This document shows positions 52,298 through 54,969 of a stretch of DNA of 64,000 bases, in pieces. The notes under the pieces are model-generated. The model ran no database searches, was not told where the DNA came from, and saw only the letters and a list, made by a program, of their open reading frames with translations. A program made the position numbers and the translations under genes. This DNA is from Escherichia coli O157:H7 (GTDB lineage Bacteria; Pseudomonadota; Gammaproteobacteria; Enterobacterales; Enterobacteriaceae), in NCBI RefSeq assembly GCF_013167455.1, contig NZ_CP038328.1. One strand, given 5' to 3'. Position 1 is the first letter of the stretch. Every line of letters starts with the position of its first letter.

Positions 52298-54850
52298 TCA
52301 GAACAATTCCTGTGCCTCGCCATTATCGATAATGGTCGTTCCCACCTCGTGCACCGCCTGTTGTGTCGGCTGCGTACCTTCGATGAAATACTCTTCGCGG
52401 CTGTTGCCACCATTAGCTAACTGCCCGGTGCTGCGATCGATATTCACCGTCACAATACCCGGCGGCGGCGTCAGCGGCTGCTCCGGCACACCTTCAAGAA
52501 CGGCTTTCATATAAGCGTCCCATGCAGGCTGGGCACTCTTGGCACCGCCTTCGTAACCTGAAATCTGATCTTTAATCGCTCCGGAAGCCGTTGTATGACC
52601 GAGATTACGACGGTGATCATCAAAGCCAATCCAGACCGAGGTCACAACGCCCGGTCCGTAACCCGAGAACCACGCATCTTTCGAACTGTTAGTGGTACCG
52701 GTTTTCCCGCCGATATCGCGACGCTGCAAATCACGACCTGCACGCCAGCCGGTACCCTGCCAGCCTGGCTCACCAAAGATATTGGTGTTCAAAGCACTCT
52801 TAATCAGGAATGCCAGCGGAGTGTTGATGACGTGCGGTGCGTACTCCTGCGCGCCAGTCTTCGCCACTAACGCCTGATTTGCCTGCTCCAGCTGCGGCAT
52901 TGGTACAGAAACATTCTGCTGCTCGCGGGAGATAGCGACATCTTCAACATCGTTATTTTCCAGCACGTTCGATTTCTGCGTATCACCGTAAATCACCGGA
53001 ATATCGCATTCCGGGCAGGCTACTTTCGGTTTCGCTTCGAAAATCACGCCGCCCTGATCGTTTTCAATTTTGCTGATAAACCACGGGTCCACCAGGAAGC
53101 CGCCGTTCGCCATGACCGCGTAGCCGCGCGCCACCTGCATTGGGGTGAAGGACGCTGAACCCAGCGCCAGCGATTCGGTGTGGACAATGTTTTGCGCCGG
53201 GAAGCCGAAGCGTTGCAGATATTCTGCAGCGTAGTCGACGCCCATCGCCCGCATTGCGCGTACCATCACCACGTTTTTCGACTGACCCAGCCCCTGACGT
53301 AAGCGAATTGGACCGGCATACTGCGGTGGTGAGTTTTTCGGCTGCCAGTCAGAACCGGCACCTGCGTCCCAGCGAGAAATTGGCACATCGTTCAACATAC
53401 TTGCCAGCGTCAGACCTTTATCCATCGCCGCGGTGTAGAGGAACGGTTTGATGTTGGAACCCACCTGACGCAGTGCCTGGGTGGCGCGGTTAAACTTGCT
53501 CTGATTGAAATCAAAGCCACCGACCAGCGCCATAACGGCACCATTTTGCGGATTGATCGACACCAGTGCCGAGTTCACTTCCGGCACTTGTGCCAGCCAC
53601 CATGCATCGCCAACCTGACGAACCCAGATTTGCTGACCCGTTTGCAGAACATCGGTCACTTTACGCGGCGTCGGTCCCTGCTGAGTATCCGAACGGTAAG
53701 GACGCGCCCAGCGAACGCCTTCCATACTCAATGCGACGGTCGACCCGTCCGCCAGCATTGCCGTCGCTTCCTGAGGATTGGCGCTGGTGACTGCGGCAGG
53801 CAGCAGCGGACCATAGGTCGGCAGCGCCTTCAGCGTATCGGTAATCTTGTTGTTATCCCACGCCGACTCGCCCACTTTCCACAGCACATTTGCCGGGCCG
53901 CGATAGCCGTGGCGCATGTCGTAGTCCAGCACGTTATTACGTACCGCCTGCTGCGCGGCCTGCTGCACTTTGCGGGTGATGGTGGTGTAAATGCGATAAC
54001 CGTCTTCATAGGCACTTTCGCCATAACGGTTATACATCTCCTGGCGCACCATTTCGCTCAGGTACGGCGCAGAAAAAGCAATCTCCGGCGCGTGATAGTT
54101 AGCGTTAATCGCCTCAGTGCGTGTCTGATCGAACTGTTGCTGGGTGATATATCCTTCATCCAGCATCCGCGATAGCACGACGTTACGCCGCGCGACGGCA
54201 CGATCCATCGAGTAGAGCGGGTTGAAGGTGGAAGGCGCTTTCGGCAGCCCGGCTATCACCGCCATTTCGTTCAGCGTCAGTTGGTCGACCGTTTTTCCGA
54301 AATAGACTTGTGCCGCAGCACCGACACCATAGGCGCGGTAACCAAGGTAAATCTTGTTCAGATAAAGCTCGAGGATCTCGTCTTTCGTCAGCAACTGTTC
54401 AATGCGAATCGCGAGGAAGACTTCCTTAATCTTACGCATCAGCGTGCGTTCTGGACTGAGGAAGAAGTTTCTCGCCAGCTGCTGGGTAATGGTACTTGCC
54501 CCTTGTGACGCGTGGCCGGAGAACAGCGCCACACTTGCCGCACGGAAGATCCCCACCGGGTCAACGCCGTGATGCTCGTAGAAGCGGCTGTCTTCCGTCG
54601 CGATAAAGGCTTTCACCATCTCCGGCGGGATTTGATCCAACGTAACCGGAATACGACGTTTCTCACCGTATTGAGCAATCAGCTCGCCATCGGCGCTGTA
54701 AATCTGCATCGGAATTTGCAGGCGAACATCTTTTAATGTCGCCACATCCGGCAGTTGTGGCTCGATGTAGCGGTATAGGCCATAAATCGAGCCTGCTCCC
54801 AGCAGAATGCAACAGACTGCAAGGATCAAAAAATACTTTACGAACTTCAC
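52298..54850 (-). CDS. mrcA: penicillin-binding protein 1A (bifunctional transglycosylase/transpeptidase)
   Basis: ORF track gives an ATG at 54874 (858 aa); the K-12-type 850-aa protein MKFVKYFLILAVCCILLGAGSIYGLYRY... corresponds to a GTG start at 54850. Class A PBP motifs present. Confidence 0.93.
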   Translation of the reverse strand: MKFVKYFLILAVCCILLGAGSIYGLYRYIEPQLPDVATLKDVRLQIPMQIYSADGELIAQYGEKRRIPVTLDQIPPEMVKAFIATEDSRFYEHHGVDPVGIFRAASVALFSGHASQGASTITQQLARNFFLSPERTLMRKIKEVFLAIRIEQLLTKDEILELYLNKIYLGYRAYGVGAAAQVYFGKTVDQLTLNEMAVIAGLPKAPSTFNPLYSMDRAVARRNVVLSRMLDEGYITQQQFDQTRTEAINANYHAPEIAFSAPYLSEMVRQEMYNRYGESAYEDGYRIYTTITRKVQQAAQQAVRNNVLDYDMRHGYRGPANVLWKVGESAWDNNKITDTLKALPTYGPLLPAAVTSANPQEATAMLADGSTVALSMEGVRWARPYRSDTQQGPTPRKVTDVLQTGQQIWVRQVGDAWWLAQVPEVNSALVSINPQNGAVMALVGGFDFNQSKFNRATQALRQVGSNIKPFLYTAAMDKGLTLASMLNDVPISRWDAGAGSDWQPKNSPPQYAGPIRLRQGLGQSKNVVMVRAMRAMGVDYAAEYLQRFGFPAQNIVHTESLALGSASFTPMQVARGYAVMANGGFLVDPWFISKIENDQGGVIFEAKPKVACPECDIPVIYGDTQKSNVLENNDVEDVAISREQQNVSVPMPQLEQANQALVAKTGAQEYAPHVINTPLAFLIKSALNTNIFGEPGWQGTGWRAGRDLQRRDIGGKTGTTNSSKDAWFSGYGPGVVTSVWIGFDDHRRNLGHTTASGAIKDQISGYEGGAKSAQPAWDAYMKAVLEGVPEQPLTPPPGIVTVNIDRSTGQLANGGNSREEYFIEGTQPTQQAVHEVGTTIIDNGEAQELF

Positions 54851-54969
54851 TGGAAATTTCCCATTTAGTTTCATTTGGGCAGTTTATAAACAAACGCGCG
54901 GTAGTATAAAGGCAAGCCAGACGCATTGATATACCCGTCAGAGTGACGGGTGATAAGGAGATCATCACA

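Follow-up and report, generated by a model that had tools for sequence, protein, structure and literature searches.

The 5' end of mrcA (ponA), the gene for penicillin-binding protein 1a (PBP1a), was analyzed in a 64,000-nucleotide (nt) stretch of Escherichia coli O157:H7 DNA (contig NZ_CP038328.1), here called the window, in whose coordinates all positions are given; mrcA lies on the minus strand. The region is 100% identical to that of E. coli O157:H7 strain TR01. A reading of the DNA without database searches (the sequence-only reading) had pointed to an in-frame ATG at 54874, eight codons ahead of the GTG from which the K-12 gene is annotated, and both the coordinates and the open reading frame (ORF) were confirmed. 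The ATG (54874 to 54872) and the GTG (54850 to 54848) share one reading frame, with the GTG lying 24 nt downstream of the ATG. In the ORF listing, an ORF of 858 amino acids (aa; 52298 to 54874, minus strand) opens at the ATG with MKLNGKFPVKFVKYF..., and minus-strand translation across both starts reads ...L*TAQ-MKLNGKFPVKFVKYFLILAV.... The closest upstream in-frame stop is a TAA at 54886 to 54884, 12 codons ahead of the GTG. All features are listed in Table 1.

Read from the GTG, the protein begins with MKFVK, followed directly by the membrane anchor YFLILAVCCILLGAGSIYGLY, so that it has the short cytoplasmic tail and single N-terminal membrane anchor of a PBP1a. As the sequence-only reading had stated, the choice of start changes the length of this tail, from about 5 residues ahead of the membrane helix (YFLILAVCC...) with the GTG to about 13 with the ATG. 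The identity of the gene was clear from the NCBIfam equivalog NF008643 (MrcA), which scored 1885 bits against a cut-off of 1263 and whose profile positions 1 to 850 (of 850) were aligned with residues 9 to 858 of the long ORF. The Pfam domains followed in the order Transgly (PF00912, residues 63 to 237), PCB_OB (PF17092, 324 to 433), and Transpeptidase (PF00905, 437 to 649) of the long ORF. An in-frame upstream start ahead of a gene is not statistically unusual: an ATG, GTG, or TTG was present before the first upstream stop in 17 of 40 annotated neighboring genes, and in 9 of the 40 it was an ATG. Among the 40 neighboring genes examined, the GTG of mrcA was the only non-ATG start.

Conservation of the two candidate start codons

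For comparison, 80 loci were fetched, one per species (Escherichia to Yersinia, Serratia, Pantoea, and Erwinia), which gave 81 sequences in total. More distant relatives were reached by protein search and by exact-sequence look-ups of contigs, for about 90 related bacteria overall. Conservation of both starts, as would be expected of a pair of N-terminal proteoforms, was not found. The GTG was present in 81/81 Enterobacterales sequences, and the whole run GTG-AAG-TTC-GTA-AAG-TAT was unvarying, synonymous sites included, whereas the codon at -24 was of a start type in only 46/81 (ATG in 27, GTG in 10, and TTG in 9) and was otherwise a non-start codon (32 sequences) or TGA (3 sequences). Moreover, one species with an ATG at -24 has an in-frame stop at -18, and the frame of the extension is stopped in 4/81 sequences. 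The ATG at -24 is common to Escherichia, Salmonella, Citrobacter, Kosakonia, and some others. Even within the Enterobacteriaceae the codon has changed several times independently: Klebsiella pneumoniae has ATA, Raoultella has ATT, Enterobacter cloacae has GCT, and E. albertii has GTG. Positions -24 and -23 were the most variable sites of the extension and proximal leader (-30 to -1).

The same contrast between the two codons was seen at greater distance. At the DNA level, the GTG start was also found in Dickeya, Plesiomonas, Vibrio, Grimontia, and a Photobacterium-like genome, and Pasteurellaceae have an ATG at the homologous codon; among these more distant relatives, a start-type codon stood at -24 only in Dickeya. 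In Vibrionaceae, Plesiomonas, and Pasteurellaceae, the predicted N-terminus of PBP1a lines up with the GTG codon of E. coli; it follows the pattern M-(K/R)-x-(I/V/A)-K and continues into a hydrophobic run.

With regard to the start of the coding sequence as DNA, every position of the first six mrcA codons (GTGAAGTTCGTAAAGTAT; 54833 to 54850, minus strand) was fixed across the 81 species, which points to a constraint acting on the translation initiation region in addition to that on the protein sequence.

Ribosome-binding signals

The sequence-only reading had proposed looking for a Shine-Dalgarno (SD) sequence at the correct spacing before each candidate, and this check favored the GTG. The SD energy was taken as that of the best duplex with the 3' end of 16S rRNA in the 20 nt before each start. 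For the GTG, GGGA with a gap of 8 nt gave a duplex of -4.2 kcal/mol; for the ATG at -24 the value was +1.5 kcal/mol, i.e., no SD. The energy at the GTG is mid-range among neighboring starts (median of -5.05 kcal/mol for the 40 annotated starts, 16 of which are at -4.2 kcal/mol or weaker), and none of these starts is as weak as +1.5 kcal/mol. The motif that includes the SD, ATGGGAAA, is almost invariant in the 81 species of Enterobacterales, and Vibrionaceae and Pasteurellaceae have GGGA, AGGG, or GAGA at equal spacing. An upstream ATG without a binding site ahead of a GTG with a properly spaced one is the arrangement expected of an over-extended ORF.

Evolution of the eight-codon extension

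A translated extension that matters as protein would be expected to show coding-type evolution, and this was not found. Entropy at the first, second, and third codon positions was 0.64, 0.78, and 0.55 in the extension, without third-position periodicity, as against 0.21, 0.12, and 0.60 in mrcA codons 1 to 30, which is the usual coding pattern. Likewise, among haplotypes in which the extension is open, codon differences from E. coli were non-synonymous in 44 cases and synonymous in 11, compared to 217 and 352 for codons 2 to 30. By these measures the extension does not evolve as coding sequence, and its eight residues are free of selection at the protein level.

Annotation history

Both lengths of PBP1a are present in the databases. 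The RefSeq (PGAP) annotation of the identical O157:H7 sequence starts mrcA at the GTG (850 aa), as does that of K-12 MG1655 (3522871 to 3525423, 850 aa, NP_417855.4), and the 850-aa sequence stands under its RefSeq name in at least 1000 contigs. The 858-aa form persists in older GenBank and UniRef entries: it was deposited for EDL933 (AAG58496.1) and for three further strains, and it stands in UniRef as C3SQ67; these entries are the product of longest-ORF gene callers that took the ATG at 54874. The curated annotation and the family model thus take the shorter form, again as expected of an over-extended ORF, and the discrepancy, which is old, real, and known, is effectively settled in current curated annotation. 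A third deposited start of E. coli PBP1a (BED38630.1; 843 aa, beginning MILAVCC) uses a TTG at codon 8 (54829, minus strand); this form, without the cytoplasmic tail and the beginning of the anchor, is almost certainly a gene-calling error. A comparable over-extension is found in a Vibrio-like genome (GCA_008370545.1), where PBP1a was called from a GTG 30 nt upstream (VQPQLNRDSPV-KFIKR); in Vibrio vulnificus the protein is called at the conserved GTG. All solved PBP1a structures are of soluble constructs without the N-terminus and are uninformative on the start.

Start of translation of mrcA

The pattern of conservation, the difference in SD strength, the missing coding signature, and the annotation history lead us to infer that ribosomes in vivo start mrcA chiefly at the GTG at 54850, and probably almost exclusively there, to give the 850-aa PBP1a (with a probability of roughly 0.85). 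In the protein made from the GTG, five residues (MKFVK) would form the cytoplasmic tail ahead of the membrane anchor. The 24 nt preceding the GTG would then be 5' untranslated leader bearing the ribosome-binding site GGGA, and the ATG at 54874 would be a lineage-specific triplet of that leader, in frame by chance. The ambiguity raised by the sequence-only reading was thus real in that both candidate codons exist, but it is less open than it had been made to appear, since the comparative data and the annotation point to the GTG. We regard the case as an ordinary, already recognized over-extension of a GTG-initiated gene. Like other products of longest-ORF calling ("erroneous initiation"), it combines an unconserved upstream ATG lacking an SD with no coding signature and with both lengths in databases; nothing substantial distinguishes it from the usual case, and the one unusual point is the use of a GTG as the true start.

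Several points weigh against this conclusion. As a start codon, ATG is intrinsically superior to GTG. The leader is rich in A, and when folded as RNA it showed no significant structure (z = 0.24). A crude thermodynamic estimate, composed of the SD, start codon, and local unfolding terms, gave nearly equal totals for the two starts (GUG, 3.77 kcal/mol; AUG, 4.01 kcal/mol), i.e., comparable initiation (0.9 relative); it fails to separate the starts and was used as evidence neither way. Transcription would begin about 45 nt upstream of the GTG, judging from a conserved TATACT (described below), and therefore both candidate start codons, including the ATG at 54874, would lie on the mRNA. The ATG is also essentially fixed in E. 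coli, with the 60 nt around it (-45 to +15) at least 99% identical in 5423/5426 E. coli records, though the whole leader is equally so. Finally, direct start-site data for mrcA, whether from retapamulin ribosome profiling (Ribo-RET), tetracycline ribosome profiling (TetRP), or N-terminal sequencing, were not found in the accessible literature: the TetRP supplements (PMC4909307) hold no entry for mrcA or b3396, and mrcA is in neither the text nor the supplements of a Salmonella Ribo-RET study (PMC11005335).

These points bear chiefly on dual initiation, in which lineages that carry the ATG would start translation there as well as at the GTG, in spite of the missing SD, and make a minor 858-aa proteoform with a lysine-rich tail of 13 residues. 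We consider this unlikely. In addition to the two codons sharing the predicted, unstructured transcript and the ATG being shared with Salmonella and Citrobacter, there is precedent for such extensions. In E. coli, upstream in-frame starts that extend the N-terminus, as mapped by retapamulin profiling, numbered 6 in BW25113 and 36 in BL21 (bioRxiv 10.1101/520783). These upstream translation initiation sites are the class that mrcA would join if its ATG were used; the mapped cases rest on measured initiation peaks. A closer parallel is PBP1b (mrcB), a paralogous class A PBP in which in-frame starts likewise alter only the cytoplasmic tail before the anchor, and which is among the 26 confident N-terminal proteoform pairs of the Salmonella Ribo-RET study (PMC11005335). 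For mrcB, however, there is Ribo-RET signal from both starts in E. coli and Salmonella, and peptides specific to its long form have been detected (PMC11005335), whereas no evidence of this kind was found for mrcA in the accessible literature. In mrcA, moreover, the upstream start lacks conservation, and the two forms differ by 8 residues, compared to approximately 42 in mrcB. Salmonella carries the identical upstream ATG at mrcA, yet mrcA is not named among the confident pairs, which is weak negative evidence against use of the ATG. With no SD, no conservation, no coding constraint on the extension, and no mention in the Salmonella data, the longer form, if made, would therefore be at most a neutral by-product.

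A second alternative concerns a mini-ORF, out of frame with mrcA, that encodes MGNFQ from an ATG at -14 (54864) and whose stop codon overlaps the GTG. Translational coupling, in which termination on the GTG and reinitiation feed this weak start, would agree with three findings: all 81 Enterobacterales sequences have the mini-ORF open and with a start codon, the peptide MGNLR is encoded by several DNA haplotypes, and the GTGA overlap is universal because mrcA codon 2 is AAG. With only four sense codons, however, the frame would be expected to stay open by chance. Moreover, no SD precedes the mini-ORF start (+0.4 kcal/mol). A regulatory upstream ORF would be expected to keep its start wherever the main start and leader are kept; the ATG at -14 is kept in Enterobacterales, but in Vibrionaceae and Plesiomonas ACG, GCG, or ACA stands in its place, while the GTG and GGGA(A/T)T stay. 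We therefore take the conserved core to be the SD, to which the mini-ORF is probably incidental; coupling of this kind seems to us quite improbable. More broadly, we see a small chance that the leader is more than a plain 5' untranslated region, through low-level use of the AUG at 54874 in Escherichia, Salmonella, and Citrobacter, through tuning of the GUG by the mini-ORF AUG at 54864, or through either of these acting with the conserved block described below as an unrecognized control point for PBP1a.

The remaining alternative, that the ATG at 54874 is the sole true start and the GTG encodes Val9, has in its favor the longest ORF, the commonest start codon, the 858-aa deposits (AAG58496.1 and UniRef C3SQ67), and a Salmonella knockout that takes the ATG as the gene boundary (PMC10492807), but it is highly improbable and already contradicted by the comparative data, given a GTG kept in all sequences against a -24 codon that is a non-start in 32/81 and a stop in 3 (with the -18 stop in one more), an extension that is not protein-like, an SD that is absent at the ATG and conserved and correctly spaced at the GTG, and a family model and N-termini of distant homologues that begin at the GTG codon.

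The biological weight of the choice is small, in that the two forms differ by eight cytoplasmic residues before the anchor. For construct design it matters more: an N-terminal tag or a "clean" deletion planned from the 858-aa form would either break up the true ribosome-binding site or leave it in place. Designs do vary. In a Salmonella study, the mrcA deletion arm ends just before the ATG (PMC10492807), while in an E. coli study the arm ends just before the GTG and the PBP1a cloning primer begins with MKFVKYF (PMC5089857). The papers found to contain the conserved leader sequence did so in knockout and cloning primers only. The case also shows how longest-ORF calling over-extends GTG-started genes.

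A conserved block upstream of mrcA

Immediately upstream of the ATG lies a 44-nt block that is almost invariant in the 81 Enterobacterales. Its mean major-allele frequency was 0.973, compared to 0.916 for mrcA codons 1 to 30, 0.72 for the flanking intergenic DNA, and 0.63 for the divergent gene hofM. Part of it, CTTTATACT, recurs 58 to 70 nt upstream of the PBP1a start in Dickeya, Plesiomonas, Grimontia, Haemophilus, and Aggregatibacter. The block probably contains the mrcA core promoter, with TATACT as the candidate -10 element followed by a GC-rich discriminator; a perfect 10-bp palindrome at the start of the leader was kept in the Enterobacterales examined. A consensus promoter scan returned only one weak site, inside the hofM start region. 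A search of the leader block against Rfam returned nothing credible (asponA scored 14.7 bits, with a threshold of 113). No transcription start or regulator for the block was found in the accessible literature, and nothing relevant to the mrcA transcription start was found in Kim 2012 or Cho 2014. For understanding how PBP1a levels are set, this block, with its TATACT kept as far as Pasteurellaceae, may be more useful than the choice of start codon.

An alternative promoter, TTTATA-N16-TATAAA, would place the transcription start at the ATG and yield a leaderless mRNA. It was set aside because its -10 element lacks the conserved final T, because it is not kept outside the Enterobacterales, and because mrcA is not in the published leaderless list; the gene is absent from the complete leaderless-mRNA table of Kim 2012.

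Table 1. Features at the 5' end of mrcA and its surroundings (window coordinates)
Feature	Position	Strand	Remarks
mrcA (ponA) coding sequence	52298..54850	-	850 codons plus stop from the GTG; PBP1a, bifunctional peptidoglycan glycosyltransferase/DD-transpeptidase
GTG start codon	54848..54850	-	Conserved start; used in current annotation
Upstream in-frame ATG (-24)	54872..54874	-	Opens the 858-aa ORF; not conserved, probably not the main start
Seven codons between the candidate starts (KLNGKFP)	54851..54871	-	Best read as 5' untranslated region: SD and spacer
SD-like GGGA (-12 to -9)	54859..54862	-	Inside conserved ATGGGAAAT; 8 nt before the GTG
Mini-ORF ATG GGA AAT TTC CAG TGA (MGNFQ*)	54847..54864	-	Out of frame; its TGA overlaps the GTG start (GTGA)
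44-nt block GGCTTGCCTTTATACTACCGCGCGTTTGTTTATAAACTGCCCAA	54875..54918	-	-68 to -25 from the GTG; almost invariant in 81 Enterobacterales
TATACT, putative -10 element	54908..54903	-	Within the 44-nt block
GC-rich discriminator, putative	54902..54895	-	Within the 44-nt block
Palindrome GTTTATAAAC	54882..54891	-	Perfect, 10 bp; start of the leader
hofM (pilM-like)	54970..55749	+	RefSeq; divergent neighbor, its ATG 119 nt from the mrcA GTG

The intergenic region and hofM

Between hofM and mrcA there is also a perfect 8-bp inverted repeat, ACCCGTCA-N3-TGACGGGT (54933 to 54951), in a segment that is poorly conserved across genera. A PilM-family gene divergent from the PBP1a gene was also found in Dickeya, Plesiomonas, Vibrio, Grimontia, and Haemophilus. 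At -9.3 kcal/mol, the SD of hofM is the strongest among the 40 neighboring genes, although expression of the hof genes in E. coli is considered to be poor.

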